Assembly (NCBI GenBank): GCA_008632985.1
Contig: QPGO01000059.1
Span: 1-64,000, forward strand
Source of the DNA: Psammoneis japonica
Lineage: Eukaryota
Length of the DNA stretch: 64,000 nt
Reading direction: 5' to 3'
Under the pieces are notes generated by a model that made no database searches, had not been told where the DNA came from, and saw only the letters and a program-made list of their open reading frames with translations. The translations under genes were made by a program, and so were the position numbers. The first letter of the stretch is position 1. Every line of letters begins with the position of its first letter. Positions 39,398 through 64,000 of this stretch are shown here, in pieces.

Positions 39398-41902
39398 ATG
39401 AGCGGACAACCAATTATCCTTGGCAAACGAAAAAGGAATAAAGAGGAGGATCCGGTTGAAATGATGCAGCAGGTCTCAATCGAAAACGGTGAAGAAAGTG
39501 CACCGGAATCGATGGAGCTCGTGGTGGACACTGCAGCGAGCGCCGTAGATTACTCGACCACAGTCATCGCCTCCGAAGTTGTGCAGGAATGGTTAAAGGA
39601 AATCAAAGACCCAGCCGCAAAGCGTGCCGCGGAAGAAAAGAAGGATCAAATAATTGAATGCCTGACGTCACTAGCGAATGAAAAAGAATGGTTGTCAAGC
39701 GAACGCGAAAGCAAAATTGGCTATGCCAGCGTTGAAATTGCTATTCAGCTGCAGCTGCCGGGAGACGTAGCCTCTGATGCAGCCATACACTTTGTGGACG
39801 CTATCGAAGCGAGCAGACGAATCGAGTGGAAGCAACGTGTGGCGACTCTGGACTACAAAATTGAAGAGATCGGGCTTTCGCACTCTCATGACGTCAACCA
39901 GTTTATGAAGCAAACCGTGACTGTGGCAAAATGGTATGAAGAGAATAACCAGTTGCAGGACGGCCCATATTTTTGCTTGATTCAATCAAGTGGAATGGGC
40001 AAGACTAAGATCATGTACCATGCCTGCAAGGAATTAGATGAGAAGGACAGGTGGCGGTGCTCCCTGGTACTCCCGAGTGAGATCAAGACGGGAAATTTAT
40101 CGCCTTCAAATGCACAAAACGTTTTCAAAAAACGAATAAGCCTCCAAGGAGTTCTTACGAAAAACAAACCCATTGGTCAAATAGTCGGTCAATGCTTTGA
40201 GGAATTGGATCAACTGGTGGCTGCAACTGTTGGAAAGGAGGAAAGCGCCGAAACTCCCAAAAACGGCTTCAAGCATGTCTTTCTTTGCTTTGACGAAGCA
40301 CAGGCTTATTTGGACTCATTTGAGGAAACAGAGAAGGAACCGAATTCACAGAGAGAGTTGAAAAGAAAGCACCCATCACTACTTTTCAGGATTATTCGTT
40401 TGTGGCTGCGAAAGAAGCGATCGGATGGTATAAGAATTGTTGCTTGCTTTGCCGGGACGACTGCTAATTTGAATAATCTTCGCTTCGAGTTTGACGACGA
40501 CAAAAGATTGATGAATACAGCTCCTTCACGTGATTGGACAGCTAAGGATGTTAGCTTCTACGACAAAGGATCGGAGATTTTTCCGGTGTTCACCGTGACG
40601 ACCACTATGGGGTGTATCACCAAGACGAACCAAGGAAGCGAATACAGGAAGGCGATTCGTTATGGGCGCCCTCTGTTTGCTGTTTTGGATGCCAACAATG
40701 CACTTGAAGCAAAGCTGCAGAATATTCTTGGTCGTATGCTCTTAAGTAAGTTGGATTGGGAGAAAAACTTGCCTGCGTGTCTCAGTGTTCTTGCTACTAG
40801 GATGCAGATGGGCCAAACGACCTTTTCAATTGCTTCCGATCTTGTTGCCAACGGATATGCAAACCTTACCTCGGTCTCATCGGGCGCTGCAAGAATGTGC
40901 TTTATGACCGATCCCGTGTGCGCCCGTCTTGCTATGCGCTTGATGGATCCAAAGTTCACATGCGGGCTTTTCAACGGGAAGGAACCACAGTGGTGGGTCA
41001 GAAAGATGGCCAAATTATTCTCTCGGGGTATCTGTAGTCCCGAGAAGGGTGATTTTGGTGAAGTGATGGTTGCCTTTTACTTGCTGGTCTGTGGGGATGA
41101 GTTGCGTCGACCCATGTCAGACGAAACCTTCTCTGTTTCATTGGACGATTGGCTGGGTACGGTGCAGTGTGGAGGGCACCCCAAAAAGCCCGTTGCGCCT
41201 TCCTCAAACGCCAGGGTGACGGTTAACTTCATTCAGGTCTGTCGCAACTACCTTCGTTCTTATGGAGACAGTTGGGATGGTTTTAAGGACCAAAGCTTCT
41301 TGAAGTACGTATACGAATCTGCCACCGCCTTTTATGTCTTTGGAGGCTGCCCTTTAATTGATATGGCCGGTGCTATCAAAATTTCCAGTCCAACCACGAG
41401 TGAGATATCCTTTGCGCCGCTTTTCATTTCCATCAAGTCACATCACTATTTTTCACCGAAGCAAGCGAAACAAGAATGTGACAAGATGTTGGTCAGGGCT
41501 GCCGAGAGTGGCTGTACGCAAGCGTTGTGTCTCCTCATTGTATTCGGGTCGCCAACGTCGTCTACCGACACGGACTACGCTTTTGACGGGGGTGTGGCAG
41601 AAAAGCTGGTTGGAAATAAACCTGTGGCTCGTATTATTCGCATCCCGGACGATGATTTTTTTGGGGTAACGGATGCTTTTGTCGAGCTTACATCAGGCGG
41701 AGCAGCTGTTGGTGAGGTTATGGCGTCACATCCTTATATTCGTGCTAACATTGAAGTGCCAATGGTGCTTGAACCCCAATTTGCTCTTCGGCGGGGGGAG
41801 AAAGATTTAGAAGCAAAGGATATTTTGACGGCTCTTTCGAAGGAACTCAGAAATGAAGCCTGGCCTACCGCAAACACGAGTGGGAATTCCGCGAGTAATT
41901 AA
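39398..41902 (+). CDS. P-loop NTPase with putative C-terminal restriction-endonuclease-like domain (Crinkler/CR-effector-like architecture)
   Basis: Walker A PYFCLIQSSGMGKTK, Walker B FLCFDEAQ, YGRPLF, KGDFGE, PLID...FISIKS; uninterrupted ORF with normal Tyr/TA content. Confidence 0.7.
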   Translation: MSGQPIILGKRKRNKEEDPVEMMQQVSIENGEESAPESMELVVDTAASAVDYSTTVIASEVVQEWLKEIKDPAAKRAAEEKKDQIIECLTSLANEKEWLSSERESKIGYASVEIAIQLQLPGDVASDAAIHFVDAIEASRRIEWKQRVATLDYKIEEIGLSHSHDVNQFMKQTVTVAKWYEENNQLQDGPYFCLIQSSGMGKTKIMYHACKELDEKDRWRCSLVLPSEIKTGNLSPSNAQNVFKKRISLQGVLTKNKPIGQIVGQCFEELDQLVAATVGKEESAETPKNGFKHVFLCFDEAQAYLDSFEETEKEPNSQRELKRKHPSLLFRIIRLWLRKKRSDGIRIVACFAGTTANLNNLRFEFDDDKRLMNTAPSRDWTAKDVSFYDKGSEIFPVFTVTTTMGCITKTNQGSEYRKAIRYGRPLFAVLDANNALEAKLQNILGRMLLSKLDWEKNLPACLSVLATRMQMGQTTFSIASDLVANGYANLTSVSSGAARMCFMTDPVCARLAMRLMDPKFTCGLFNGKEPQWWVRKMAKLFSRGICSPEKGDFGEVMVAFYLLVCGDELRRPMSDETFSVSLDDWLGTVQCGGHPKKPVAPSSNARVTVNFIQVCRNYLRSYGDSWDGFKDQSFLKYVYESATAFYVFGGCPLIDMAGAIKISSPTTSEISFAPLFISIKSHHYFSPKQAKQECDKMLVRAAESGCTQALCLLIVFGSPTSSTDTDYAFDGGVAEKLVGNKPVARIIRIPDDDFFGVTDAFVELTSGGAAVGEVMASHPYIRANIEVPMVLEPQFALRRGEKDLEAKDILTALSKELRNEAWPTANTSGNSASN

Positions 41903-42770
41903 AAAGTTTGGACGGTCAGTTGTAGTTAGCACAGCAGGGTATTCTTTACGAAACCTGATCTACGTAAAGCCGCAACATAATGCCTAAGTTAAATTTATGA
42001 CAATAGAATGAAGAAATACTCCGTTATGGTCCTAAACTTCTTGGCGGGTCAGAGCTTGTTCTTGAAATGATAACTGAGGCATGGCAAATGTGAGCTTTTT
42101 GCAATTAGATTCCAATGCTTTAAATCCCTGTATGATGGGCCAAAGTGTGTTGCAATCCCTCCTCTGCTTTGACTTTCTGATTCAACCAAGTAACACTTGC
42201 AAAAAATTTGGCCTCTGTCCAGTTTGTGTAGAAGTGAACCTGTGTGCACCCATGTTGCAAGGGGGGGGGGGGGGGTGCTGACTGCACCAGTGAGTTCATG
42301 GACAAACACATTGTCTTTGTTCTAGATTAATCAGGGTGAACACAAATGATGAAAAGATTTTGAGGATCATGACAAAGCATCTCAAGAACATTTAAAAGCA
42401 ATCTTCTCACTTCAACCCCTGTGCCAACGCAACAGCAGTCCCAAGGGTGGCCGCTGCAATCTCTGCTAAAGCCAGATGAGTTCCTTTTGATGTGGCTTGC
42501 TTCAAGTCATTGTCCACCATTTTTTTGACACATGTTGGATGATGAGACTCACAATGCTTGACAAATGCATCAACCATCATCTCAGATCGCCATTTGCTGG
42601 CAAATGGCACGCAAGGGTCAATCCAAAGGTCTGGAAAATTTCGTGCAACTCTGTGATGACACAAACTGCAATGCAGTTTCCAGGATGCTTTTGTTTTTGG
42701 CCACAAGAACTGCAGGCATGCAGTGACAAAAACAAGAGTTTGGCATTCTCACTCACTGCAAAGTTGCACG

Positions 42771-42915
42771 TTTGTTTGGGGGCTTAAATGGTTGACCCTT
42801 GCAGCGGTGTTGACCCAATCAATCCCAAAAGAAGATCAAGGATTTGTTTGGGGGCTCAAACGGTTGACCCTTGCAATGGCATTGACCCAACCAATCCCAA
42901 AAAAAGATCAAGGAT
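42771..42915. repeat. Tandem duplication, 72 bp x2
   Basis: tttgtttgggggct.aaa.ggttgacccttgca...aagatcaaggat twice. Confidence 0.8.
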
Positions 42916-43859
42916 TGAAGCAATGCAATTCTGTGACCATGAGGACAAGTCATCATTTGGAAGCATCCAGCCACTTTGATCCACTGCCAACCACACTTCA
43001 ATGAGTCGTCAGGCTTCTGTGGCCAACAAACAATGCAATGGGAGGCATGCCACAACCGCACAACCATGTGTCCCAATCAATTTGTTGTGCATGCGCGGGT
43101 GCTCAGCAAAGCAATTCCATGAAAAATGTCCAAAAGTCTTCCAACACTGCAACCTTGTCAGCAAAACAGGCCACGCGGGCTTGGAAGAAGGACTCAAGTC
43201 ATGGATCAGACAGAAGCCTTTTTCATGAGCAACCATGGAATGGGCATCATCAGGATTGTCATCATCAATGTCAAGCACCAGTTTTGTGTGCTTGTTTGGC
43301 ATCCATTTGAAAGCATCTCACAATTGTGATCATCCACCCAGAGTGTCAAAGTCAATGAATCAATCATCGTTGAGAATGTGGGCCATGATTTTGCCTTGCA
43401 ACCACATGGTCCAAGCTTCATTGAGCCAATGATGATCCCAAGTGGCATTGATGGTGACAAGATTCCTGCTTCAACTGTGCAAGATCTTGTGAGTGGCCAC
43501 CATGTCTGCCAAGGACCGGTCTGTGGCTGACAATGCAGGAGCAAGAAAGCAACCATTCACATTCTCCATGCCCTGGAATTTTAGAATTGAAAACCAGACA
43601 ATGCAAAAATTGGGTTGGTGTGTTTTTCTGTTTGAAGCTGTCCACATTTAAAAATGAGAAAGAAAGTGAAAGAACAAAATCCATTTTTGAGGGTGCTGCT
43701 GCACTGCCGCCCTGCAACTCTGGCAAATGAGCTGCTGGCCCACACCCCCAGTGCACAAAAATGCGTCAGGAATGCATTGTGATTAGACTGTTTTGACACC
43801 ATCTTGCAATGATGCCCCGCCAAAGTAGCTGACAATGGTGTGCGCACCACTCAGAGCAA

Positions 43860-45140
43860 AATGCTTTGCATCACAGATGCTCTCTCTGGACATGGGCTAA
43901 ACCATGGCAACCCAATTTTGTGGTCGTTGTGTGGAGTGTGCAAGATGTTCCTCTGAGGAATCTAACAGATGAGTGCAATCTTGAGCAAGGTGCTCTGACC
44001 TGCACAAATGAATGGCAGCAACCTCTGCCTCAGCATCTCAGTGTAAAGCAGATTTCTGTGTCTTGGCATCATCACCATTGGGCCCAGATGAAGTTCCCAA
44101 TTGTGGCAGCCCAGTCAAATTGTCCAGTTCTGTCATCCACACACGCACAAGACAAGCTCCAATCAAGCAGGCAACTCTGTTGGGCCACACTGCAAAGAGA
44201 GGAGAAACGTCCATTGAAAAGATGATGCCAGCCAATCCCACCCTGAGAGAGAGCCATCTCCCTGTCCGTTGCATGTGTTTTGTCCAGACTGAACTGTTCT
44301 TCCCGCAATTCTGCTTGGAGTGCCAAGAGAAGCAGGTCATGAACCGGGGGGGGGGGGGGGGCAGCATGGATGTCATTGCACTTCTTTTGAAGGCATTGCA
44401 GAAACTGACACTGTGGCCATGGCTTGTTGTGGTTGCAACAGTGGAGGACATGGTCCCTGTCTTCCTTTGCAGCCTGACAACAAATGCAGCCATCCAGGTG
44501 AGCGGGGTTCTTGCACCAGTGGACTGTCCCATCAGTTGGAAGAAGATCCTGCACCAGTTTGACAGTGCTGATGCACCTGCGAATGTTCCTTGACATCAGT
44601 TTGGAGTGAGCCATCCAATTGATCTCCTCAAAGACCGCATCAGACCATTGGTTCTTCTCTTTCATGTGTGCGATCAGAGGGGGAGTGGCTGCGTCATGTC
44701 AGAGGATGGCTTTGAAGTTCAAACCAAGGGCAGCACCCTGAATTGTGAAATTTGCAGGGCAGCGAGGCATTTGCAGAGCAACAGAGGTGTTGTGGGCATG
44801 CAGACCCTGATGTGGTCCGGCGATCCTGCCTGCTCTCACATTGAGCCTTGCCAGCAGAGAAAGTGATGACAACAGGAAGAGACAATCCTGATGTCCCTCA
44901 ACCCAGTGGAGAAAAAAAGGAAAGACTTGCACCAAAGGGGGGAGAATGGTGGCAATGCCAACAAATCACACCACCCACCCCATGCTGAATGCATGGGGTT
45001 TTGCTGTGATTTCTTTGGCAGGCATCAAACAGGCTTTGGTCAAGGCCAATTTGCGTGCAGCCACTTCAATGAGGTCTCATTCACACCACACCAAACAAGG
45101 GGGGGATCTGTCCAAATCAGTCACAGCAAAGACCAACAGA
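43860..45140 (-). mobile_element. Decayed RNase H-LINE fragment, same family as 21519-23154
   Basis: HWVEGHQD, WSDAVFEEINWMAHSKLM, VKLVQDLLPT, CICC..EDRDHVL; limits approximate. Confidence 0.7.
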
Positions 45141-45148
45141 CAGGAGGA

Positions 45149-45333
45149 TGTTTTGGTCTGTCCGTGTGTGGACAGACAAGGCTGCTGATGTGTTTGTTGG
45201 CTCGCTTCTTAGAAAGTGTGACTTTGATGATGTCTATGACATTTTGAAGACTTTGGCAGAATGCGGGATAGATCCAATCTAGGATCCTTTTCACAATTCA
45301 AACAGATCTTGTTTTTGACACGGATTCATTCAG
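45149..45333 (+). repeat. Copia 5' LTR
   Basis: Starts tgttttggtctgtc; matches 51978-52163. Confidence 0.85.
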
Positions 45334-47755
45334 CACTTCATCAGAGCCATCCCCCAGCCAACGATCGACGATGGCATTCACCGCAGTGCAAACCACTGCA
45401 TTCTTCACAGACAATGCACAGATGGGAGCACCCAACGCGACCCGTGCGCAGCCAGGATTGCCACAAGTCAACAGACCTTGCTGACTTCAATGAAGAAGGT
45501 CTCAAGCAAGTTTTCGAAAACCTCAAATGCCCTGGGGGTGCGATCCCAGACCCTGCTCCTGGTGCGGCGGCAGGAGCGATGACCAGGACTCTGGCATTCG
45601 TGATTGGAGCCAAGAGCATGATGCGTCTCAAGGTTGCGAGGCAAGTGGTGTGGCACTGTGAAGCTGTCAGTCGTGAGCCATCAGCGGCGAATGTGCGGTG
45701 GACTCCTGTGCTCAAGAACTTCCAAGAAGCGCGGAAAGCCCTCCAGAGCAGGAAGGACGAGGATGACCCGGATGTCCCAAGGATCTCCAAGTCACTGCCA
45801 ATTGTGAAGTGGACTGAAGCCTTCCGCGATCATCTTCAGCGTGTGATCGGCAGTCGGACCATTCCACTCTCGTGTGTCACTCAGGAGATGGTCGAAGTTG
45901 AGCCAACCGCACCCACTTTAGCTGCGAACCAACCTCATTTGGAAGAGCACGGCTCGCTGGAAGATGAGCTTGTGGCTCGCGCCAGTCACACTCACCCTTC
46001 ATTCCGCAAGGACAACTCTGGGGTCTGCTGTGCATTGGAAGAAGCCACTCGTGGTGCTTCGCACGTGGCTTCGATCAAGCCATTCCAGCGCCGGAAGGAT
46101 GGAAGGGGCGCATGGATTGCACTTGCGTCACAGCATGCTGGTGAAGACAAGTGGGCGGCTGAACTCAAGAAGCAGGAAGAGTTCATTCACAATGGGAAGT
46201 GGAAAGCTCAGTCAAATTTTTCTCTTGATCGGTTTGTCTCTCAACACAGAAATGCTTTCATTTCTGTGCAGCAGTGTGCGGAACATGTCACTTTCCAACT
46301 TCCAAATGAACACACATGAGTCACGCACCTTTTGGATGCCATTGAAACTTCGGATGCTCCATTGTAGGCTGCGATGGCTCTGGTTTGCAACAACATGGGA
46401 CCAAATGGCAAACGAAGTGATTTTGAGGCTGCGGTGGCATGTGTCTTGCCCTGTGACCCTGTGGCAAAGAAATGAGCCGCAAAGCGACCTCATGCGGAGG
46501 TTTCTGTGATTGATTCAAGTGCCATCAAGTCAGGTGTCAGCAAAACGGGTGTGGAACTCCGATGCCACACTCACACCGAATGTCGCAAGCTGGAGGCCGA
46601 CCAGAAGGCCGAATTGAAGGAATGGCGCTCCAATGAGGGGTCTTCCACTACGAAGAAGAAAGACAACAAGGCCAAGTCGTCGGGTGGTGGTTCGCAAAAG
46701 AAAATCAAGAAGATGATTTCTGAAGCAGTGGCCACCAAACTAGCTTCACGCGGAAAGAAGGATGAAAAGGGTGACGCCGAGTCTGATGATGCCAAAGCAG
46801 GAGCATGTCTCCTTTCCCTTGTTCAGGCAGCGTCTGCACAAGCAACGGCCCCTCCTCTGCCACCTCCACCTCCACCACCTGCTCTGGCTCCGGCACAGGC
46901 CGCGTCAGTTCACTTCAAGCCTCCCTCTGTTGCGTTGCAGTCCATCCTTTGATGTGCGGGTGCACAGAAATGAAATGCAGGGATGGCGCTGCGCTCCCAT
47001 GTCTCTTTGCTTGAGGGGAGAAATTGTGCCATCTGTGCCATTGAATCGCAGTCGCCGATTCCCAATTCGTCTGTTCTGAAATTTGTTGCTCGCCATGCAA
47101 TCTCTGATGCCACTTCAGGGACAATCGAAGAGACTCAAGAAGAGAGCAAAACGCGTTCTGAATTGGATTCTCATGCCAACATGGTTGCCATTGGAAGAGG
47201 ATCCTGCATCTTGAATGATGCTGGCCGTGCAGCTCAAGTCAGTCCATTCAATCCCAAGTGCAAATCAATGAAGGACGTTTGAATCGTTGAAGCACCATTG
47301 GCCTGTGATTGTCCACATTCTTTGAAGACGTGCTTGCTGGTCCTGCACAACGCGTTGCACATCCCGGCGATGGACCACAACTTGCTGCCGCCCTTTGTGC
47401 CACGTGAAGCAGGGGTGATCGTGAATGATGTCCCCAAGATCCAAGTGATGGGTCGCGAGCCTGCTGAAGAGGATCGCGCTTTGCTGTTCCCAAAGATGAA
47501 GATGCGAATCCCACCATCGCTGTGGGGGGTGCTCTCTTATTTTCCTTTGCGATGTCCAACTCTGCAGGAGATGCAAGATGTTGAAGACGCGCTGGTTCTC
47601 ACTCCGTCTGGACACACTTGGAACCCTCACTCAGATGCCTGCGCTTGCAATGAGGAGAGCATGCTGGGCTGGGAGGGCAACATGGCCAACAAGCGAGATT
47701 GGATCAAGATGCTTGTGGAAGATTTGCCAGAAGAAGACGAAGATCTCAGAGTCTC

Positions 47756-48151
47756 GACGGGTTCCAGTCCCAGGTGGGACTCCGTGTGACATTGGGCCCG
47801 TAGAATTCTGCGTGCGAGCTCCGCAGTAAATTTGTGCTGCAATGAAAATGCAAATGATCGCCAACAGAAAAAGAGGCAATTTTACGAACGCATCTCCTCC
47901 TTCACACTTGCAGCACATCATTGACAGTTTGCCCGGGCATGTTCTTCAGACATTAAAGAATGCACCCAGTGCATTTTCACTCTCATGAATGTTGAAAATA
48001 GAAAGCCTTTGGCTTCGCAAAACAGGGAGCATGAAACAATTTCGTAGAATGTCACACGTAGAAATGCACGTGCGCGACATGCGACGCGATCCAAAAAACC
48101 ATTGATGTCACAGTTCAGCAGTGCGAGGTCCCACCTAGAGCTGGATGCATC
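47756..48151 (-). mobile_element. MITE copy 4 (second subfamily) inserted in Copia pol, TSD TCTC
   Basis: Related TIRs in reverse orientation; different core; tctc on both sides. Confidence 0.88.
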
Positions 48152-51100
48152 TCTCGTCCATCATCTCTGGCATCGAAGCATTGGCAATTGACTGCAACCT
48201 GTCAGTCGTGGATCATTTTGAAGCTCGTGATGACCTGAGTGGATGTCCGGGGGCTGTTCGTGAAGCCATGCACGCTGCCCCATGTGACATTTCTGTCACT
48301 CTTGATCCTGTTTCACTTGCTGAAGATCTTCAAGACCGCCGAGACATTGGGGTGTTTGCTGCGTCCGTGGGCTCTGCCAGCGCAGGACATGAAGTGGACA
48401 TGGGTCAAGATGACGATGTTGATTTTGACATTTTCGAAGATGTCCAGCTCGACGACATTGTTGACGATCTCATGGACCACTTTGAATCTGATCCTCATCT
48501 CACTGTTGGTGGCACTGCAGCATCCAAGTCCAAGGGTGTGTCTCCCAAGCATCTTTCTAAGATCGGGAGGACAAGCACCAAGGATGCCGAACGCACAATG
48601 GACAACACGATGCAACCACTGCGACGAACCGATGACCCCACTTTGTCCAGGAACTTTTCTGCGAATGACAGAATGTTGCGATGCCGTCGAATTGCCCAAC
48701 ATTTCTTCATGGATGCCTTCTTTGCGTCCAAAGGATTTGCAATGTTGCACCGATGCGCGCTTGATCCGAGATTCCTCAGGCTCTCAAGATGTTCTCGAAG
48801 GAAGTTGGTGCTCCGGAGGCTGTTGTCTGCGGCAGCGACTCTGCTCAGAAGTCTGATGAGATTCGCCAGTTTCTTCACTCCATTGGAACCAGTTTGCGAC
48901 TTTTGGAGGAGGGAGCACCCTGGTTGAATTGTGCCAAGTTGTGCATCTGGCTTGCTCAAGGAGGCGGTCCGCAAGGATGTGAAGGCGTCACTCTGTCCTT
49001 TGTCTTTTTGGGATTGCTGTTTTGAAAGACAGGCTAGGATCAACAATCTTGCTGCTCGCAACCTGTTCCAACTTGAGTGGAGAAATCCACATTTCTCTGT
49101 GACCGGCAAGGAAGGTGACATTTCCAACCTGGCTCAATTTGGGTGGTGCGAATGGTGTCACTTTCGTGAGCACACTGATCCTTTCCCATTTGATGAAGTC
49201 CTTGGACGTGTGTCAGGACCCGCGAAAGGAGAAGGGAATGAAATGGCACAATGGGTGTTGAGGGGGAATGGCAACGTCGTCCCTGGGTGCAGTGTCCGAC
49301 GTCTCACGGTTGCTGAGTTGAACAGTGACTCCAAGAAACGGAAGCGCGAGATTTTTGATCAGTGTGTTGAGTCTCGATGGGGCTCTGCGGCGTGTCCTGT
49401 GTCTTCTGCTGGGAAACAATTTGTTCCCTGTGGAGACAAAGACAAGAAGCCACGTGAGTTCCCTGACTTTGATGACCCAGTCGACGCCACAGGGAACGCA
49501 GTTGATCCGACTCCGTTGCATGATGCAATGATTCATGCGGAGTTGGCTCTTCCCCAAGGCGACAAATTACGTCGTGCCAAAGTCGTCGGTCGAGCTGTGG
49601 ATCCGGATGGATGTTCTGTTGGAACCTGCAGCGATGACCCTGTCATGAACACCTTGGTGTGCGAAGTCGAGTTTCCTGACGGGGAGGTGAAAGAGTGTGC
49701 AGCCAGTGTCATCGCGGAGAATTTGACATCTCAAGTTGATCCCAAAGGTTGTTCACTGAACGCATTTGACAGTGTGCTCGATTTCTCCAAGGATGAAACC
49801 ACTTTAACCAAGGACAACATGTGTGCCAAGATTGGGAAACGTCTGCGAATTCGCAAGACTGCGTGTGGCTGGAAGTTCCTTGTGCTCTGGAAGGATAGAA
49901 CTGAGTCTTGGGTTCCCCTGAAGGACATGAAGGAGTCTCATCCTGTTGAGACAGCTGAATTTGCGCAGTGAACCGGCATTCCGTTGGTGGGTGCCGCACA
50001 CGCTGCGCAAGCGGGGCATCATTGTGTCGGCGGTCAAGGCTCGTGTGCGACGAACCACGCACAAGCATGGAGTCAAGTTGCCCAATGCTGTTAAAGAGGC
50101 TCTTGAACTTGATCGTCAGAATGGCAACAACCTGTGGGAGACAGCTGTTGAGAAGGAGATGAGCAATGCGGGTGTTGCATTTGAGATTTTGGACGATGAC
50201 ACACCTGCTCCTGTTGGCTGGTCCAAGCAGTCAGGTCACTCAGTGTTTGATGTCAAGATGACCATGGCCAGGAAGGCAAGGTGGGTCCTTGATGGACACA
50301 AGACTTCAAGTCCCGAGGGTTTGATGCATGCTGACGTTGCATCCAGGGAAAGCATTCGAGTTGCCTTGACGCACACGGCTTTGAACGATGTCGATGTGAT
50401 GGCGGCCGACATTCAGAATGCGCATCTGCAGGCTCCGTCATTGCAGAAGCACTGCATCGTTTGTGGGCCCGAGTTTGGTCTTGAGAACATTGACAAGCGT
50501 GCTCTCATTTGTCGGGCCTTGCATGGAGGAAAGTCAGCAGGATGAGACTTCCGAAACCACCTGCGTGCGTGTGTGTCTCACCTCGGGTTCAAGCCGTGCA
50601 AAGCTGATCCTGATGTTTAGATGCACGAGGCTCTTAAGTCCGATGGCACTGAGCACCAGGCGCATGTGTTGTTGCACACCGACGATGTGCTTTGTGTGTC
50701 AAATGATGCCAAGAATGTCATCAGGAATGAGATTGGCAAGCACTTCCCGATGAAGGAATCTTCGATTGGCCCCCCTTTGCCACATCTCGGTGGTCACCTG
50801 CAATGTGTGGAACTTGAGAACGGAGTCAAGGCATGGGCCTTCAGTTCCTTCCAGCATGTGCAGGCGGCGGTCAAGAACGTGGAGACATGTTTGGAGTCGA
50901 AAGGTTTGAAGTTGCCTTCGAAGGCTCCTGCTCTGCTTGGCAGTTCGCATCATCCTGAAGTCGACACGAGCAAGGAATTGCTGCCAGCCAAAGCAGCTCA
51001 CCACATGTCTCTCATTGGTGTCCTGCGATGGATGGTTGAGCTCGGACGTGTTGACATCTGTCTTGAAGTGTCTGTGATGTCTTTGCATGTGGCTTTGCCA

Positions 51101-51977
51101 CAAAGTGGACACCTCGATCAGGTGCATCACATCTTCGCATGCCTCAAGAAGCACCACAATGCGGAGATGGTGTTTGTCCCCAGTGATCCTGCAATTGATG
51201 AGTCCCCATTTGCTCAACAGGATTGGACGACCTCCGAATTTGGACTTGCTGCGAAGGAGGAGGCACCTGGGGACATGCCTCAAGCTCGAGGCATGGGTGT
51301 GATCGTCACTGCACATGTTGACGCGGATCACGCAGGCGATTCGATTGCTCGCCGATCGCGCACTGGTTTTCTTGTTTGTCTGAACTCTGTGCCTGTTTGC
51401 TGGTTGTCCAAGAAGCAAACAGGCATCAAGATGAGCTCGTTTGGGTCAGAGTTTGCCAGCATGAAGCAATGCACTGAGTGCATTCGAGGTCTTCGGCACA
51501 AGCTTCGGATGATGGGGATTCCGGTCACTGGTCCAGCCCATGTCTTGGGTGACAGCCAGTCGGTTCTGGCAAACACCTCCATCCCCGACTCAACGTTGAA
51601 GAAGAAATGTCACAGTTTGGCCCATCACTTTGTCCGTGAGGGTGCGGCCCGGGATGAGTGGCGGACTGCGCACATCAACACGCATTTGAACCCAAGTGAC
51701 TCATTGGCCAAGGCGCCACCTTCAGGGGAGAAGTGCAACCAATTCATTCGGATGATTCTACATTGTGTTGGAAGGAAGGTGGTGCAGGCTGCGCACCGCC
51801 GAACCACCTGCCATTGCAGAGGGTTTTATTTTGGAGTTCCCCACCGGTGGAGTGGGTTTTTGTTTGGAATTCCCCACTTGATGGAAGTTTGCATGGAGTT
51901 CGCCATTGCATGATGATGACACATCCCTTTGTTGGCAATCTAGATTGACAACATGACCAAGTCTAGATTGAGGGGAG

Positions 51978-52163
51978 TGTTTTGGTCTGTCTGTGTGTGG
52001 ACAGACAAGGCTGCTGACGTGTTTGTTGGCTCACTTCTTAGAAAGCATGACTTTGATGATGTCCACGACATTTTGAAGACTTTGGCAGAATGCAGGATAG
52101 ATCCAATCTAGGATCCTTCTCACAATTCAAATGGATCTTGGTGTTTTTGATGCGGATTTGTTT
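51978..52163 (+). repeat. Copia 3' LTR
   Basis: Immediately after the PPT; direct repeat of the 5' LTR; last bases uncertain. Confidence 0.85.
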
Positions 52164-53684
52164 TGTCGAGTCACTTTTGGCAAGGAAATGAGCACCTGTT
52201 GTTGCCAAACAAAGGTTTTGGCAGTGCCATTGTCGTTTGTGTGCGGAAATCAAAATGCTTGATGTTTGGGTGATGTCACATGTTCCCAACAATTTAGATT
52301 CGTCTGGATTTTTTTAAGATGTTGCTTGCAAAAAATCAACTGACTTCTGGGTTCCTCAATGCACTGAAGCAAGACTGGATTTGAGTGATTGGGGCCTGGT
52401 CACTGGACTGCAACAGCAGCAAAAGCATTGTGTGCTCAACAAGACAATGCAATTGTCATCTCATTGTGAGATCCAAGTGCTGATGGTGAGAGAGACAAAG
52501 CAGCCATTGAAACAGCAACTGTTGCATTCCCGCCAACGTCATTGCACATGACTGACAGACGACCATGTTCTGTCCTTTCTTCTTCCTTTTGATGCACCAG
52601 TTGGAAATTTTGGTGCCAAAAGTGCTTCAAAGTTCCAGACTGACAGCCAAGCCAAAAACTGTCTGGGGGTTTGAAGCCTGACAATGAAAGCAGAATCCAG
52701 GGTGCAAATCCTCCTGGGTTTGCCTTCATCAACAACTGGCTGATGCCGCGTGACAATGCAACAGTGTTCTCCAAGCAGCCAAAAAGGGCATGGCACAAAC
52801 AAATGCAAGTTCAAAGAGCTGAGTGAACTTGAGCAAACCTTCAGGCAAGTCTCAGATTTGCAAACGAGTTTCATCACAGCCGTTGGAATCAAACCGTTGG
52901 CTTTCGAATGACAACAAGATGCACAAAAACAGGGTCCTGTTGTTTGCTGTGTCTGAGAGACAACCTCCGGGTGGCAGAGCTCAAGCAAGAGATGATCAAT
53001 CTCCGGACAAATGCTCCACAGTCACAGCCCAGATGCGCAACCTGGACAGCAGTCGATCAGTCATCTCTGCCAGCTTTTGCAAAGTGGTTCTCTAGAGTTG
53101 CAACAAGTGAACTTGCAGTCATCTGTGTCTTGCGCTTTCAAGGCTTCTGTTGCGTGACGTCCGACGCACATCAGTTGTTCCATTCATTCATGTTGCTGTG
53201 GTTTGTGAAGAGACAAAAATCGCAATCCAAGCATGCACCAGCATGCACACCTGACAACTGCACTGGCAATTGCTTGCAATTCAAGAGAATCAGTGTGTTG
53301 CTGAGCTGCACTGCAGTGGCTCTGCCCACCAATGGGTGGCTGCTAGAGTGGGGCCCTGCAGGTGAAAGCAGGGCTCTCCGCACTGATGCTGCATGTTGCC
53401 ACCGCATGCATGGTGCCATCTTCAAGATGTTGCTGTCATTCTGGCGCTGTGCATGGCCGCGCCGCATCACAGCAATCAATCATCAGGTGGCATCTGCGCA
53501 ATGCCAGGGCCATCTGAAAACATCTGTTGTGCACTGTTCCAAGGCAATGTTTTGTGCTGAGCATGAGATGGGGAGCTTGTTCTGCACACGAGGAATGAGG
53601 AAGAGCGCGATCCACTGCAATCATCACGAGTGCTGACACAACCACAAACTCCACCATGCATCCCGATGAAGCCTGCCATCAAGG

Positions 53685-55700
53685 TCAGCCGTTGGGTTTC
53701 TTCATTCGGAGCCCTTCATCAGCTTCGCACACTCCCACAAACTTTGCAGCCTCTGCCCAACAAACCTTTCCCGATGCTCCCTGCTTCTTGATTTGTCGAA
53801 AACTCTGGAGGCAGGATTTGGTGGACTGGGGTGTGCATGGGCAGACATCTGTCAAATGCACTGCTGCAATGTTTTGTGCTGCCTGGCAGATTCCACGCAG
53901 TTTTGTCGGATGGCAAATGTTGCCTTTGGCATGCTGACAGCGAGGCAAATTTGTGGCGCAATGCACGCACCTTGTCCCCACTTGTCCGACACGAATCTGT
54001 TTCTTTCTGCCTTGGATGTTGCAAGTGGAGTCATCTTCGGCCACCTCGAAATGTTCCAACTGCTTCTGAGCAAGGATCTGATGTTCTGACAGATCATCAA
54101 CATCGGATGACAAGAACATGCAAATGCCCCCGGATTTTGTTCTGGGAAACAAATCATGATGAGCAGGAGCTGCAGTGGCTTGAAAAGAAAACCTCTCAGG
54201 GGCTCCTGATGGAGGATGGTTAGCTGGCCCAGAAAAGCTGCTGGCTGACCAGTCACTGCGTAAGGACGGACAGCAGGCTGCTGCTGGATCGGGAATGCTG
54301 TCGGAATGACCACAGTGGGACGCTGCAATGACAGCATTGGATTGAGTGCCATTGCAGCCTGCACCGCTGGTGTGCTCGGGTGCAGCCCGATTTGTTGTGT
54401 CACTGCTGCGGGCAGCAGAATGTTTGCGTGTTGACTTGCTGCCATTGCAGCATGGTGCTGACCTTCTTGTTGCAGCAAGCTGAGCATGCCATGATGAGGA
54501 AGACCAGCCATGGTCCTTGGTGGCACATCGACATTTCGTGGACATTGATCCGCTCTTGAGTCAACTCTTGGTCTCGTCGCAAACTCTGCTCTCAGTGACA
54601 AAGATGATGGTGCCAACGATGAGTTGTTGCTGGTCATGGCAACCATGCCCGACTGTCCCCCAATTGCTGCTGTTCTCCCTCTCCCACCACTGCTGCTGTG
54701 AGCAGTGTTGCCAGAGATGCCATTTCCACGAACTGAGCAAGCGACATTTGATGCCGCAACATGATCCTCGCTGGCCTCTTGGCATCCTCGTTGCATGATG
54801 CCCATGGAATTCACGCGATGCTTGCGACGGCTTTTGTTGGAGGAGGAGGATGAGGACGAGGTGGTTGTTGCGGTGGGGCTGGCAGCAGCAGTGCTGGCAA
54901 GCTGACAAGCAGAAGGAGCATCACTGGATGTGATGCTCCTGTTTGTTGAGATTCCAGCACAGCAAGTGACGTAGAAATCATCTCTTTGCACTGTCTTTTC
55001 TTGGGATTTGTCACTTCTGCCTCTCCTCCATCAGAACAGTCTTCAGCAGCTTTCAAGCAAGAGGATGGCCCACTGGCCTGAGTGGGAGCCACCTTGTCAT
55101 TTGCAGTCATTTGTTGTTTGCTCCTGTCGGGCTTCGTGGCGGCACCTTGTTGTTCCATTGCACTTGTTGCATCTTCATTTTCGAGTTGCTTCACATCTTG
55201 AACTGGAATCGTGTTCGCACGAGCGGCTGGCTCCTTGGTCTCCACTGCTCTTGTTGGTGGCACAATTTCTCGACGAAGAGTGCCGTCGCTTTTTGACGCT
55301 CTGCCGCTGGTTTTGACAGTTTTCTCCATGTTGTTCTTTCAACATGATGATGATTCAAGCACGAAACTCTGGACTCAGCATTGTCACACCATTCAGATGG
55401 CTCCTTCACCACCGGCACTGGTGCAGTTGTTTTCAGTGCACTGTCCGCAGAGCTTTTTTGTTTACGTTTGGCGATTGGCTGGCGACCTGAAAGCACGGAT
55501 TCAAGGTGCAGCTCTGAGCAACATTGGAGAAAGGGACTTTTCAAGAAACACCGTGACGTCGCATTGTCGGTGGAATTGCACATGCGGAGAAAATTTTGTT
55601 TGACAACTTTTGTGCATTCTCCTGATCAATGCTGAGTTGACTCATTGTTGCCAGCATTTGCAATGACAAGGAACAAGGAAACAACTGTTGGCAATGACCG
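53685..55700 (-). pseudogene. Decayed QVGxRCxHC-domain paralog, with duplicated 3' flank at 53045-53685
   Basis: LSEHQILAQKQLEHFEVAEDD..GQVGTRCVHC..GICQAAQNIAAVHL; flank aligns with 12600-13255. Confidence 0.8.
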
Positions 55701-55759
55701 CTGCTGACATGGCGAAGGATGAAGGACGCAATCAGCAATCGAACCGTGTTGCAGCTTCA

Positions 55760-57868
55760 ACGCACCTGCGAGCCACATGCGGGAAAGAAAGAGAGAAAAG
55801 AGAGTCGTCAAGACGAATGAATTGAGTGGCAACTGAAGGCAGTTTCCCACGTTCCATGTCGAGTTGCGGTGAAGAGCAATGGCGCTGATGGCGAAGAGGC
55901 GAAAAGGGACTGCCATTTTCATCAAGAACTCGTTCCACCAATGACAAGCGTGTCTGAGTGCCGCCAAGAGGAAGAGTTCGGCATTGCCCAGAGCAGTGCT
56001 GACACGATTGCAGCTCAAGATGCAAAGCGACTTGCAAATGAATGTGGAACAAGCACGATGCAATGCCAGGGCACCGACATGTCACCCATCCAGAGCAAAC
56101 GGTCTACACCTGCCAATGCCAATGTTGATCCTGCTCTCGCTCGTCCCACCTCTCGTCTGAAGGCTGCAGCAGAAGAGGACGATGCTGGTGGACGAGAGGC
56201 AGAAGTGGCAAATTGCGAAAGGCAGTGCAAAGAAGGGATTTCTAAGTCGCTCACAATGTTGCAACAACGAACAAGAAGAGCAGCACCAAGTCCTCCTCCT
56301 GATGCTCGTCGTCATTGTCCAAACAGTGTTCCCTCCTTCTCCTCGTCATCCTCGAACAACATTTTCTGTGAGAAGTCCAGCATGCAACGAGCAAGACGCC
56401 ACGGCCAAGACACCACCGGCGACGACAATCACGCAGCATTGTCAAGTGTCTCCAGCTCAGTGGCAGAAACAGCACCTCTGGGGACACTGCAGCAAGTGGC
56501 AGCGGTGGGACGAGGACGAGAAGCGCAACAACAACCACGGGAATGACATCAGCTGGGCCAGAAGACAACGCGACCAGCTGTTGCTCATCATCCTCTTCAT
56601 CGAGAGGGCTCTTTTCGACGAGGCCCAGAAGAAGCAATCACACCGGGCTGGGTCAGGATGATCAGGATGCCTCCCACTCAATCAGAAACGACAACTGCAC
56701 CAACACTTTGCGAGAAGATGAACACTGCCCCCCAATCCATCAACAAAATTCATTCCTCTCACATTCTTGCATGCTTCTTACCCTCCCCAACATGCTGGAG
56801 CACATGACTCATCCAGAAGAACGTCCTCACATGCCACCAAGGGACCAACATGACAAGTTTTTCTTCAAGGAACACGAAGACAAGTGCCAGCTGCTTCAGA
56901 TGAAGAAAGCAAAGCCGCCAACAATGGCATCAACTTTGCCTCAAGAATGAATCCAAATCCAAGAAATGCTGATCTGCCACCAGGGCATGACCTTCCTCAT
57001 GAACATGTGCTCAGTTTGCAACAAGGTCAGGAGAGGCATCGTCATCAGCAACACCATGCCACAGCAATGGCTCGACAGGCAAGCATGGCGCCACTGCACC
57101 CAGCAGTGACTCAACCATTTTTTCCTTTGCCAAGTTTGTCAGCACAGCCTGCAATGGTGTTTAATCCAATGGCACCATTGCAGTGTTCAACAAGCGTCAT
57201 TCCGATCACATCCCTGAATGTGCTTGCTCCTCCTCACACAATGCATGGTCAACCAGCAGCTCTTCCGGGCTTGGTTTGCCAGCCTCCATCAGCAGCTCCA
57301 GTGATTTCTCATCCAACCACTGCATCCCACAGTGCCCCGAGTGGACCCACCCATTTCGATTTGTTCCCCAGAACAAAATCCGGCGGCATTTGCATGTCTT
57401 TGTTGTCTGATCCTGACAATCTGACGGACTGTCAGGTCCTTGCCCCGGAAACAGTTAGAACATTTCGAAGCAACCAAAGGTGACTCCAAATGCACCACCC
57501 AAGGGAGAAAGAAAAAGACACATGAAGGACAAGTGGGGACAAGGTGCATGCATTGCACTGTGAAGCCTGATGTCGAGCATTCAAAAGGTGGCGTTTGCCA
57601 TCCGATGAAACTCAAGAGGATTTGCCAAGCCGCACAAAATGTTGCAGCTGCGCATTTGACAGACGCCTGTAGATGCACACCCCAGTCTACCAAGTCCGAC
57701 CTCCAGAGCCTTCGTCCAATCAAGAAGTTGGCAGCAGCAGGCAAGGTTTGTTGGTCAGAGGCTGCAAAGTTTGCGGAACTTTACGAAACGGAAGTGGGAC
57801 TTAGAATGAAGTCGGTGGCTGACAGCCGTGCTTCTGGCGGCCTGGCTCACTCTGCTCTGAGCGAATGA
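55760..57868 (+). pseudogene. Decayed QVGxRCxHC-domain paralog, head-to-head with the previous one
   Basis: LTDCQVLA/RKQLEHFEATKGD..GQVGTRCMHC..RICQAAQNVAAAHL; N-terminal part homologous to the 54811-55329 ORF. Confidence 0.8.
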
Positions 57869-58279
57869 GGTCTTCATTGAGCTGCACACATTTCCGTCTG
57901 TGTGATTTAAAAGACGTGTGCTGGCATCTGCTCAAGAGGAATGTGCCCAAAGTGGGGCCACCGACAGGCAAGCATCGATCGCTTCACTTGTGCATGCGGT
58001 GTCGCTCTGCTGCACTTGGAAATTCGTGGAATTCCCATTGTTGTTTCAGGTTGTCAGGTGGAATTTCTAATGTCACACACATCGCAGGAACAATTTGAAT
58101 TTACCGCAGCTGCTGTTCATGCTCATTGTGCGAACAAGAGGGATTTCTTAGACAATCTCTCTGCTGGTGGCCACCAGCTGGCTCCAGAAGCAGGTCGGTC
58201 TGGCAACTGCCGGTGCTGTGCAGTGCACATCGACCCTTGATCAAACAGAGTGGACTCTAGAAGACAGAATCATCTCCGA

Positions 58280-59594
58280 GGAATCTGTTTCTTTCTGCCT
58301 TGGATGTTGCAAGTGCAGTCATCTTCGGTCGCCTCGAAATGTTCTAACTGCTTCCGAGCAAGGATCTGACATTCCAACAGTTTGTCAACATCAGATGACA
58401 AGAACATGCAATTGCCCCCAGGTTTTGTTCTGGGAAACAAATCATGATGAGCAGGGCTGTGTTGCCCACTGTGAGGTGCTGCAGTGGCTCGAAAAGAAAA
58501 CCTCTCAGGGGCTTCTGATGGAGGATGGTCAACCGGGCCTGCAAGAGCTGCTGGCTGACCAGTCATTGCGCAAGGATGGACAGCAGGCTGCTGCTGGATC
58601 GGGAACACTGTCGGAATGACCACAGTGAGATGCTGCAATGACAGCATTGGATCAAGTGCCGTTGCAGCCTGCACCACTGGTGTGCTTGGGTGAGGCCCGA
58701 TTTGTTGTGTTGCTCCTGATGGCAGCAGAATGTTTGCTTGTTGACTTGCTGCTGTTGCAGCACAGTGCTGACCTTCTTGTCGCAGCAAGCCGAGCACACC
58801 ATGACGGGTTCCAGTCCCAGGTGGGACTCCGTGTGACATTGGGCCCGCAGAACTCTGCGTGCGAGCTCCACAGTGAATTCATTGAGCAATGAAAATGCAA
58901 ATGATCACCAACAGAAAAAGAGGCAATTTTACGAACATGTCTCCTCCTTCATGCTTGGTGTGCATCATCAACAGTTTGCCCGGGTGTGTTCTTCAGACAT
59001 TGAAGAACATGCCCAGAGTGTTTTCATTCTCATGAATGTTGAAAATGGAAAGCCTTTGGCTTCGCAAAACAGGGAGCATGAAACAATTTCGTAGAACACA
59101 ACACGTAGAAATGTGCGTGCGCGACATGCGACGTGATCCAAAAAACTGTTGATGTCACAGTGCAGCAGTGTGAGGTCCCACCTGGAGCTGGAACGCGTCC
59201 CATGATGAGGAAGACTGGCCACAGTCCTTGGTGGCATGTCAACATTTCTTGGATGTTGATCCGTTCTTGAGTCGACTCTTGGTCTCATTGCAAACTCTGC
59301 TCTCAGTTGTGACAGTGATGCCAACGATGAGTTGTTGCTGGTCTGCGACATTTTGAAATCATCATCATTGCATGAATCAACCCAGGCATTGTGCAAAGAA
59401 AGGATTTCATCTGTAAGAGGCACTGGTGTCCCACACTTGCAGTGGTTTTCCATGACAAACAAAGTCTGCCACATTTTGCGCTTCTCCTCCTCCTGGTCCT
59501 CTTCATCATCAAATGACACCACCGGCAACGTGTTGCCACAGATTTGGCTCGCCCTGTTTGATGCCGTGTCTCCACTTGCTTGTGCGTGATTGCC
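58280..59594 (-). pseudogene. 3'-truncated decayed QVGxRCxHC-domain paralog with MITE insertion
   Basis: LLECQILARKQLEHFEATEDD..QGRKKQI; DNA aligns with 13563-14437. Confidence 0.8.
58803..59199 (-). mobile_element. MITE copy 5 (second subfamily), TSD CCAT
   Basis: The empty site is visible in paralogs (gccatgatgaggaagacc at ~14045 and ~54488). Confidence 0.92.
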
Positions 59595-61505: not shown

Positions 61506-62029
61506 GAACTGACAAGAAACGATGATGTGAGAAATGAAACATGGAAATTTCAATCTCTCGTTGGGTGTGCGCGTGATGGCAGAAGACGGAAAGAACGAAA
61601 CAAACACGCATGGACAACCAACAAAATACCTCATCGCTGACAAACGAACCAAGGGAACAGACTGGTTCTCAACGTCCATTGTGATTCCTTTGGTGTGAGG
61701 ATGAGAGCAACAGACCAACCCGGGAAGGAAAAAAGGTTCAACTGCAACAGCAAAAATCTTTGAAACGCATAAATTATTTAGTGATGACGTACTTCTCTGT
61801 GGAAGAATTCCATAAATAATCAAAACAAGCTCAGTAGAAATGACCGTTTTGATGACGTCATAAATAAATGCTGTATTCCACAGGATTTTTTGTCACGCCC
61901 ACATAAATTCACAACTTTCAAAGTTCGTTGCTGAAACTAAGAACATCCCTAAAGCATGTGCTCTATTGTTTATGTATAAGCGTAAACGGCAATAGGCGAC
62001 GATTTTCTTTATCTAGGTCGCACATCACA

Positions 62030-63850: not shown

Positions 63851-64000
63851 CTATGATAGAGTAGAGACTATTAGTAGTGCTGACGGCATGGCTGTGTGAG
63901 AATGTTTTTGTGGTTTGTTTCAGTCCCGCAGCTCGGAGTTCGTCAGTGTAAAAAATCAACGGAGAACATCCGAAAACTTCGAGCTCGAGGAACTGCACGT

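Follow-up and report, generated by a model that had tools for sequence, protein, structure and literature searches.

Introduction

In ascomycetes, repeat-induced point mutation (RIP) converts CpA to TpA, enriches TA, creates TAA and TAG stop codons, and mutates both members of a duplicated pair in one sexual cycle. Here, we describe a footprint of the opposite direction in positions 1 to 64,000 of contig QPGO01000059.1 (assembly GCA_008632985.1, Psammoneis japonica; this whole 64-kb stretch is hereafter the window), in which a Ty1/Copia retrotransposon, a Ty3/Gypsy retrotransposon and a Crypton-like open reading frame (ORF), whose family is predicted to have the tyrosine-recombinase fold, have lost their conserved tyrosines together with nearly every TA dinucleotide of the blocks in which they lie. 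The footprint shares with fungal RIP a dinucleotide-specific transition hypermutation of genomic transposon DNA, a diagnostic skew and dead elements. It differs in that TA is destroyed (observed/expected ratio 0.062) and TAA and TAG stops are erased, and also in that one copy of a pair can be spared (three pairs) and the loss is graded between copies.

A closely similar process was first reported in 2026 from an unrelated alga, the chlorarachniophyte Bigelowiella natans, where mutation-accumulation lines yielded 302 nuclear point mutations, 231 of them within two integrated viral regions; all but one of those 231 were A to G or T to C, and these 230 were all on TpA (Mettrop et al., bioRxiv 10.64898/2026.01.13.699255). 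According to the main text of that preprint, the rate is ~6e-7 per site per generation, the process was seen in 11 of 15 lines, and low TpA marks 324 coding sequences of the genome, among which reverse-transcriptase and DDE domains are over-represented, as well as 124 clusters of windows poor in TpA and rich in CpA+TpG; the authors' proposal is that an ADAT2-like DNA adenine deaminase acts as a defence (bioRxiv 10.64898/2026.01.13.699255). TpA hypermutation of selfish DNA is already known from B. natans; the window shows it at saturation in a diatom-like host.

As far as the preprint's main text allows the comparison, both cases have in common that A:T changes to G:C solely at TpA, giving TpG or CpA by strand, that regions of foreign origin are affected and host DNA is normal, and that TpA depletion is accompanied by an excess of CpA and TpG, a long-term footprint concentrated in reverse-transcriptase and transposase genes. 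B. natans is a chlorarachniophyte, whereas the host here looks like a diatom, a stramenopile; the targets described there are giant-virus and virophage inserts, whereas here they are long terminal repeat (LTR) retrotransposons, an element of recombinase type, and short repeats, together with the intervening DNA. Depletion is near saturation here (observed/expected 0.03-0.08), compared to a Rho of 0.45 for the B. natans viral region, and strong CpG decay is co-located with it. The words tyrosine, stop codon, retrotransposon, copia, flanking, trinucleotide, CpG and diatom do not occur in the main text of the preprint; as far as that main text shows, the replacement of Tyr by His or Cys, the loss of TAA and TAG, and the preference for RTAY over YTAR (R, purine; Y, pyrimidine) are additions to the B. 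natans case. Our literature searches found no report of TpA hypermutation in diatoms, and the text available of a 2025 diatom transposon preprint (10.1101/2025.10.24.684338) has no occurrence of dinucleotide, hypermut, RIP or deamin. We consider it probable that the window records a TpA-specific A:T to G:C hypermutation of transposon-rich blocks, at the level of DNA and presumably by a deaminase-type agent.

Histidine and cysteine replace the conserved tyrosines of the Copia reverse transcriptase

The Copia element has the layout of its class, with an RVT_2-type reverse transcriptase followed by RNase H and LTRs on both flanks (Table 1). A homologue search with its frame at a cut-off of E <= 1e-5 returned 1587 proteins, and the alignment was made with the best 60 of the 1587; the 120 homologues listed were 54-70% identical, all with Pfam RVT_2 (PF07727) at E values down to 4e-259. 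A reading of the same DNA from its letters alone (the sequence-only reading) had listed His or Cys where Tyr is expected in the Copia motifs, and the frame reads exactly so: NAHLQAP, ALHGGKSAG, LLHTDD, HVDADHAG, LRHKLRMMG and AHHFVRE, with the YxDD box turned into HTDD (50675-50686). It had also counted a single Tyr in ORF 50621-51913, which we recovered as one TAT codon at 51827 within GGTTTTATTTT. Tyr content of the frame was 0%, compared to 4.64 ± 0.35% in the 60 relatives, and at the relatives' Tyr frequency the probability of finding zero Tyr in 579 residues is ~1e-12. At the 22 columns with Tyr in at least 80% of the relatives (48-60 of 60 per column), the window had His (17) or Cys (5) and never Tyr, so that the alignment proposed as a check by the sequence-only reading returned CAY or TGY in all 22 columns and not a random spectrum.

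The other 19 residue types were kept at 54-100% of their conserved columns (e.g., Thr 7/13, Ile 7/11, Cys 5/5, Lys 17/17). Changes of A to G at the first codon position accounted for Thr to Ala at 4 of 13 conserved Thr columns, Ile to Val at 3 of 11 and Met to Val at 2 of 9. Among 78 substitutions at conserved columns, 20 were TA to CA, 10 TA to TG, 11 CG to CA and 7 CG to TG; the remainder comprised 12 other transitions, 10 transversions and 8 multi-step changes. Of its TA steps, the 1864-bp span 50050-51913 retains 5 (observed/expected 0.048). The 581 codons are interrupted in frame by a TGA near 50543 and by a TAG at 50618, and a Pfam scan of the broken Copia ORFs gave nothing at E <= 0.01, the best match being RVT_2 at E = 0.27. 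Four consecutive Cys replacements at residues 365-478 look clustered, which is not significant alone.

Gypsy and Crypton-like elements have lost the same residue

In the Gypsy element, a reverse transcriptase with its YxDD box is followed by an RNase H-like domain, with an aspartyl protease upstream, as in the Ty3/Gypsy layout. Pfam matches were PF17919 (E = 1.9e-10) and Asp_protease_2 (E = 5.6e-4), and the library search gave 44,452 matches. On the minus strand, at 20734-20745, CIDD stands in place of the YIDD box, as the sequence-only reading had it, in a column that is Tyr in 21 of 22 normal-Tyr relatives. Tyr made up 0% of the stretch versus 4.48% in relatives, and Cys 7.48% versus 1.82%. 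The 13 columns with Tyr in at least 60% of the 22 normal-Tyr relatives carry Cys (7), His (3) or other residues (3), and none kept Tyr. The stretch holds 6 stops in 300 codons (5 TGA and 1 TAA) plus a frame change, and its TA observed/expected ratio is 0.045.

In the Crypton-like ORF, the motif VLDVYW has become VLDCCW at 33707-33724, again as previously read, and the column of the second Cys is Tyr in 20 of 20 relatives; likewise, GDxYLGRIL has become GDQHLGRIL, at a column that is Tyr in 19 of 21 relatives. The ORF has 0% Tyr compared to 2.71% in 22 relatives, and none of its five conserved Tyr columns was kept (His 2, Cys 1, Met 1, Arg 1). The only named relative is from the diatom Seminavis robusta. 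The earlier label of this ORF as a Crypton held in part: no Pfam match below E = 0.0078 was obtained for 16 members of the family, and that match was unrelated, and a profile of the family found 0 matches at E <= 10 among PDB sequences. Recombinase folds were matched by a structural model of one relative (mean pLDDT 62.9), for which the top Foldseek rows were all recombinases (Cre/Tre, XerH, XerA, lambda integrase and Ndc10), albeit weakly (E >= 0.098), and VIA-align gave Z scores of 13.1 for the Ndc10 DNA-binding domain, 11.2 for Flp (root-mean-square deviation 4.0 over 206 residues) and ~10 for Cre. Cryptons are present in a diatom, and Cbf2/Ndc10 contain Crypton-like recombinase domains and derive from Cryptons, according to the portion of the work used here (Kojima and Jurka, PMC3212892). 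The model thus supports the label Crypton-like at the level of fold. The Tyr of VLDVYW may be the recombinase nucleophile, as would fit a motif placed close to where the lambda-integrase core alignment ends, in a part of the model of low confidence (residues 332-385, pLDDT < 50). The ORF is flanked by copies of a 400-bp repeat.

Thus three unrelated transposon classes are affected, as had been claimed: Copia, Gypsy and the recombinase-type ORF all lose conserved Tyr, and in all three the active-looking relatives carry Tyr, not a native His or Cys, at those columns. Of the codons predicted for the replacements, TGY and CAY fill all 22 columns in Copia; the CGY codons (Arg) that were also expected appeared once among the 39 listed Tyr columns of the three families.

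TA is lost throughout sharply bounded blocks

TA was counted per 250-bp bin across the window. Depleted stretches held 0-3 TA per 250 bp, and normal stretches (501-13250, 16001-18750, 39001-42250 and 61751-64000) held ~5-20. In the depleted pool (36,941 bp, 146 TA) the observed/expected ratios were 0.062 for TA, 0.53 for CG, 1.63 for CA and 1.64 for TG; in the normal pool (21,000 bp, 881 TA) they were 0.61, 0.95, 1.13 and 1.11, respectively. Block edges were sharp to within 250 bp and adjoined intact host genes. The normal parts carry long, uninterrupted, intronless ORFs with UPF0020 methyltransferase, WW, CIA30, Nop53, CID, and RNA ligase and AAA_33 domains, and ORFs of host type with Pfam domains are confined to them; the depleted parts contain the Gypsy, the Copia, the recombinase-type ORF and repeats. 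A normal-TA islet of 500 bp (32001-32500) within the depleted DNA is the least mutated copy of the short element described below. The Nop53 ORF (9549-10625, minus strand) has 107 relatives, the best 45% identical, and those with organism names all come from diatoms (Thalassiosira, Cyclotella, Conticribra, Chaetoceros and Minutocellus). Judged by sequence, the host genes look diatom, and their long intron-free ORFs would fit. The host would thus be a diatom or a close neighbour of one, lacking a near relative among the proteins searched, and the ceiling of 45% identity among the relatives listed speaks against B. natans.

TA is lost throughout the blocks, non-coding DNA included, so neither Tyr codons nor transposons as such are what the process is directed at; Leu, Ile and Val codons that contain TA, as well as TAs at codon borders, were lost alongside the Tyr codons. 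Tyr codons all start with TA, as do the stops TAA and TAG, and the outcome is therefore the wholesale replacement of Tyr by His or Cys and the loss of TAA and TAG. Counted over six frames, TAA and TAG fell to 1.56 and 1.35 per 1000 codons in depleted DNA, compared to 9.07 and 10.19 in normal DNA, and TGA stood at 24.0 versus 17.4. With TAA and TAG erased, long spurious ORFs abound in depleted DNA, and the frames of dead elements stay long: stop-free runs of at least 100 codons numbered 156 in 36.9 kb of depleted DNA and 43 in 21 kb of normal DNA. The idea that the elements were inactivated without needing stops stood insofar as TAA and TAG are erased and fell short insofar as TGA stops and frame changes are still present; given these, missense change is not the sole lesion of the elements.

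Repeat copies give the direction and timing of the change

Inside the window, 21 repeat alignments of at least 140 bp contained 820 mismatches, of which 591 were transitions. The adjacent double mismatch CA/TG occurred 105 times, the next commonest double occurring 10 times. Such doubles are what the sequences would be expected to show if one ancestral TA (or CG) was converted independently in two copies. In three pairs of unequal TA content, TA had changed to CA or TG in the TA-poor copy and the reverse was never seen (Table 1), and a 115-bp repeat keeps its TA and CG at 18493-18605 and has both converted at 25168-25276. The products are symmetric between strands, CA being enriched 1.63-fold and TG 1.64-fold, with near-equal CA and TG products in the polarity pairs. 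Per kilobase, the asymmetry between CA and TG was mostly within |z| < 2 and had no relation to element orientation. We also looked for strand-coordinated (kataegis-like) tracts and rejected them, as 18 same-strand repeat alignments gave 89 runs compared to 88.2 ± 5.3 in shuffles.

Between the two LTRs of the Copia we counted 13 differences, every one a transition; 12 of them fall on steps derived from TA or CG, and these include three CA/TG doubles. Since LTRs are identical at insertion and now differ at such sites, at least part of the process acted on DNA after integration. This bears on the alternative that adenosines at UA were edited to inosine in transcripts by an ADAR- or ADAT-like enzyme and then reverse-transcribed into new insertions. 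UA is indeed the preferred context of known RNA adenosine deaminases, as noted in the preprint's main text (bioRxiv 10.64898/2026.01.13.699255), and two of the three affected families are retroelements. Yet the LTRs of one insertion, copied from one RNA, differ at TA-derived sites; the coding strand of Copia more often shows T to C (17 His), a change that cannot result from editing of the sense RNA; the host-region duplicate fragment 61149-61453, non-coding DNA and the element of recombinase type are affected as well; and the depletion fills whole blocks across element borders. We therefore regard RNA editing as very unlikely. As summarised in the B. natans preprint, the ADAR-type A-to-I hyper-editing of animal repeat RNA resembles the present case in changing A to G, in preferring U/T before the A and in targeting repeats; it acts on RNA, whereas the changes here are in DNA, follow integration, and affect both strands, including spacers that do not look transcribed.

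A short element of ~400 bp with very high copy number provides a graded series. Its contig depth sums to ~1e5 in run X1, compared to ~50 for unique DNA, and four of its five copies in the window contain 22, 8, 5 and 3 TA; one run X1 contig skips 47751-48152 exactly and so represents an empty site inside Copia. The copy with 22 TA lies unmutated within the depleted region, so the process does not act at once, nor is copy number by itself its trigger. A homology-triggered mutation of duplicates, with a RIP-like trigger and the same chemistry as TpA-specific hypermutation, could draw on the fact that a large share of the depleted DNA occurs more than once in the window. It would be expected, as in RIP, to hit both copies, whereas in the pairs 18003-18304/61149-61453 (7:0) and 12603-12785/53048-53234 (6:0) only the copy in the transposon block was mutated; moreover, the highest-copy element has an almost untouched copy, and the hypermutated viral region of B. 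natans is single-copy as described in the preprint's main text (bioRxiv 10.64898/2026.01.13.699255). A trigger of this kind seems quite unlikely to us.

Flanking bases and CpG decay

Survival ratios were taken as the density of each TA context relative to neighbouring normal host DNA. They were 0 for ATAT and 0.009 for ATAC/GTAT and for GTAC, ~0.05 for ATAA and ATAG, ~0.11 for GTAA and GTAG, and 0.15, 0.26 and 0.37 for CTAG, CTAA and TTAA, respectively. RTAY thus survives at 0-0.009 and YTAR at 0.15-0.37, a loss ~40 times more thorough for RTAY, in which survival alone cannot separate the -2 base from the +1 base, each context being read on both strands. The same order of contexts was obtained against 339 kb of intact Gypsy relatives (80 loci). 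The excess of the TG product was largest before C, which would presumably agree with the U-A-C in the loop of the TadA substrate, but products of CpG decay fall into that class too.

Decay of CpG to TpG or CpA is a second process in the same blocks, making up 18 of the 78 substitutions at conserved Copia columns, with CG to TG or CA changes at conserved Arg, Ser, Pro and Ala codons. CpG observed/expected ratios were 0.19-0.47 in some TA-depleted parts (19001-31000, 42001-45000 and 52001-54000) and 0.6-0.84 in others, e.g., Copia, with TA loss uniform across them. Because CG loss varies (0.19-0.84) and TA loss is uniform, the two processes are separate, with different histories or rates. The co-located CpG decay fits cytosine methylation of silenced DNA. 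The methylation-driven CpG decay known from transposons resembles it in the CG to TG or CA changes seen at conserved codons and between repeat pairs of the same blocks, but explains the CG part only and cannot yield CA or TG from TA.

Together, these data weigh on the possibility that heterochromatic TpA simply mutates faster, by way of a context-dependent lesion, an error-prone polymerase or biased mismatch repair, with neither a deaminase nor a defence involved. Nothing in the window identifies an enzyme (no ADAT2/TadA-like deaminase is encoded within the 64 kb), CpG decay, which follows passively from methylation, occurs in the same places as the TA loss, and the loss is gradual over the four 400-bp copies (22, 8, 5 and 3 TA). 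A ~40-fold difference between RTAY and YTAR combined with A:T to G:C change at one dinucleotide looks, however, like the sequence preference of a protein; CpG loss varies where TA loss does not, so that the two are separable; and the B. natans process was on in only 11 of 15 lines, which its authors, in the preprint's main text, read as regulation (bioRxiv 10.64898/2026.01.13.699255). A non-enzymatic or repair-based cause is in our judgement unlikely.

Related elements and sequencing reads

The 80 best related Gypsy loci in metagenome contigs had TA observed/expected ratios of 0.47-1.02 and none of the 80 was TA-depleted; the selection of these loci favours intact copies and is silent on how widespread the process is. 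The view that Tyr loss is not a family trait was thereby borne out, with ordinary TA content in 80 of 80 environmental Gypsy relatives. Among the best 150 public Gypsy representatives, 8 (P0254, P0257, P0261, P0320, P0328, P0329, P0345 and P0395) have 0-0.6% Tyr and raised His+Cys, and the three that were aligned (P0254, P0257 and P0261) have mostly His or Cys at Tyr columns. As these Tyr-free proteins are at most ~47-50% identical to the window copy, other element families, possibly in other organisms, carry the same footprint. A native composition, in which the families or a donor genome avoid TA, e.g., to escape a TA- or UA-specific nuclease, draws on the mild under-representation of TA everywhere (0.61 in host genes). 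It is contradicted by the loss of functionally conserved Tyr, by frames with stops and shifts, by the 80 of 80 related loci at 0.47-1.02, and by repeat copies that differ with the expected polarity; we take it to be effectively refuted and assign it a negligible probability.

Contigs of sequencing run X1 (depth ~46-64) contain 396-472 bp Copia stretches with 0 differences from the window; this run may be the assembly's own source, which makes it weak independent support. Its near copies show 212 transitions among 245 listed differences, and 27 of the 40 differences shown are interchanges among TA, CA, TG and CG. A second run, X2, covers almost none of the stretch. The assembly gaps are sized N runs of 822 and 737 bp. 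An artefact of sequencing or assembly, such as systematic miscalls at a modified base in TpA, could draw on the fact that run X1, the best-matching run, may not be independent. Against it stand the X1 contigs, which match at depth with 0 differences, the sized gaps, the 8 Tyr-free Gypsy representatives that come from other records and, where aligned, mostly show His or Cys at Tyr columns, and the measurement of the same signature as heritable mutations in B. natans, as given in the preprint's main text (bioRxiv 10.64898/2026.01.13.699255). We hold an artefact to be exceedingly improbable.

Run X1 contigs over the Copia locus lie at roughly single-copy depth (~39-64), at which alleles and near copies are indistinguishable. 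They differ from the window at 44572, 45955, 45980, 49995, 50017-50018, 50510, 50749, 52067, 52154 and 52165; the differences are mostly CG versus TG or CA, with one TG versus TA and one CA/TG double.

Discussion

The direction of the change, its dinucleotide specificity, its two-strand symmetry, its timing after integration, its confinement to blocks and its flanking preference are all observed in the window, and the original proposal of a TA-directed mutation that replaces Tyr codons in unrelated transposons was supported in each part that could be tested. We propose that the affected blocks, which are transposon-rich and probably silenced, would undergo A:T to G:C changes solely inside TpA and on either strand, so that TA becomes TG or CA. 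The changes would follow the integration of an element and accumulate copy by copy until ~94% of the TAs are gone, and the process would halt within 250 bp at neighbouring host genes. At the protein level, Tyr would turn into His or Cys, including in the YxDD box of both reverse transcriptases and at the conserved recombinase Tyr, with ordinary CpG to TpG or CpA decay running alongside in the same blocks. The agent may be an enzyme that deaminates adenine in DNA to hypoxanthine, which pairs as G; a TadA/ADAT-like deaminase suggests itself as the candidate, given that it naturally acts on an A following U. Targeting would be by chromatin state or small RNA and not by sequence repetition, and the role would be genome defence. 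A silenced domain as the target is suggested because one duplicate is spared, the island at 16001-18750 is untouched and a copy of the highest-copy element is nearly intact.

Several points weigh against this proposal. Ancestral CG also gives CA/TG doubles, so that part of the 105 may be CpG decay. His and Cys stand at 17:5 in Copia on the plus strand (binomial p = 0.017) and at 3:7 in Gypsy on the minus strand, and the Crypton-like ORF has an excess of Cys only; a symmetric process predicts no such difference, and neither orientation nor raw CA and TG counts account for it. One copy of the high-copy 400-bp element is unmutated (22 TA) within the depleted region. In the survival ratios, neighbouring host DNA or Gypsy loci of foreign origin take the place of the ancestral sequence. 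Targeting by chromatin state is deduced from the geography of the blocks, and the enzyme, the hypoxanthine and the de novo mutation events all lie outside what the window displays.

A broader interpretation, which we put forward tentatively and give somewhat less than an even chance, is that diatoms have a DNA adenine-deamination defence that mirrors RIP. In it, an enzyme reading RTAY would be sent to silenced domains and, together with the decay of 5-methylcytosine, would drive TA and CG into CA and TG and kill proteins mainly via Tyr; as a rhizarian alga displays the same measured signature, the system would be shared across the stramenopile-alveolate-rhizarian (SAR) supergroup or would have arisen twice. 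If the diatom case holds, TpA hypermutation extends from one chlorarachniophyte to a major, genetically tractable phytoplankton group in which the enzyme could be knocked out, and the preference for RTAY over YTAR is a testable fingerprint for the responsible enzyme. If a shared or twice-arisen system is true, Tyr-free transposon ORFs whose stops are all TGA should reveal it in any genome. Near-total TA loss blinds profile searches, as with the broken Copia reverse transcriptase ORFs missed by Pfam; spurious ORFs and blinded searches would together bias transposon annotation and LTR-based dating in such genomes. From the figures in the main text of the B. natans preprint (211 mutations, 3,132 generations and 6,169 TpA), we infer ~1e-5 per TpA per generation, or a half-life of roughly 6e4 generations; at a similar rate in the diatom, saturation would come quickly in evolutionary terms.

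Other features of the window

Table 1. Positions of the features discussed in the text (window coordinates)
Feature	Positions	Strand	Basis or detail
Whole Copia element, TA observed/expected 0.079	45142-52158	+	bounded by LTRs 45142-45326 and 51971-52158
Copia (Ty1/copia) reverse transcriptase-RNase H frame, Tyr-free	50048-51790	+	homologue search and alignment
Gypsy (Ty3) reverse transcriptase stretch, Tyr-free	20101-21000	-	homologues, PF17919
Gypsy RNase H-like domain	20236-20571	-	
Gypsy aspartyl protease	23157-23708		
Tyr-free ORF, predicted tyrosine-recombinase-fold (Crypton-like) family	33305-34561	+	relatives, model fold
Polarity pair	31972-32353 (22 TA) vs 33025-33407 (5 TA)		TA to CA 8, TA to TG 9, reverse 0
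Polarity pair	18003-18304 (7 TA) vs 61149-61453 (0 TA)		TA to CA 4, TA to TG 3, reverse 0
Polarity pair	12603-12785 (8 TA) vs 53048-53234 (1 TA)		TA to CA 3, TA to TG 3, reverse 0
Very-high-copy ~400-bp short element inserted in Copia	47756-48145	-	
Other copies of the ~400-bp element	31965-32353, 33010-33416, 34575-35014, 58793-59213		
TA-depleted block, assembly gap 14438-15259 inside	13251-16000	.	TA map
TA-depleted block holding Gypsy, CpG observed/expected 0.19-0.74 per kb	18751-32000	.	TA map
TA-depleted block, patchy past ~35750	32501-39000	.	TA map
TA-depleted block holding Copia, assembly gap 59595-60331 inside	42501-61750	.	TA map
Normal-TA island between two depleted blocks	16001-18750	+	intact 698-codon ORF 16068-18161, RNA ligase + AAA_33

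Positions 1-500 form another TA-depleted stretch (1 TA per 250 bp), which ends near 500, shortly ahead of the methyltransferase ORF (668-2089). Positions 12603-18304 and 53048-61453 are related by a segmental duplication of several kilobases, in pieces that are 84-93% identical. In the first copy, the 2.1-kb ORF with RNA ligase and AAA_33 domains lies between segments that are 115 bp apart in the second copy, and the second copy has an extra 4.3 kb bounded by 53993-54494 and 58281-58804.

Between two depleted blocks lies an ORF of 933 uninterrupted codons (39101-41899, plus strand) with normal TA and no Pfam match. Its nearest protein-atlas clusters are unnamed eukaryotic ones (Oomycota, Basidiomycota), with recognition below the usual level, and a Crinkler-domain cluster follows at a lower score. 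Beside the Gypsy element, three tandem units of ~65 bp, 72-84% alike, occupy 25704-25931 of the depleted block.

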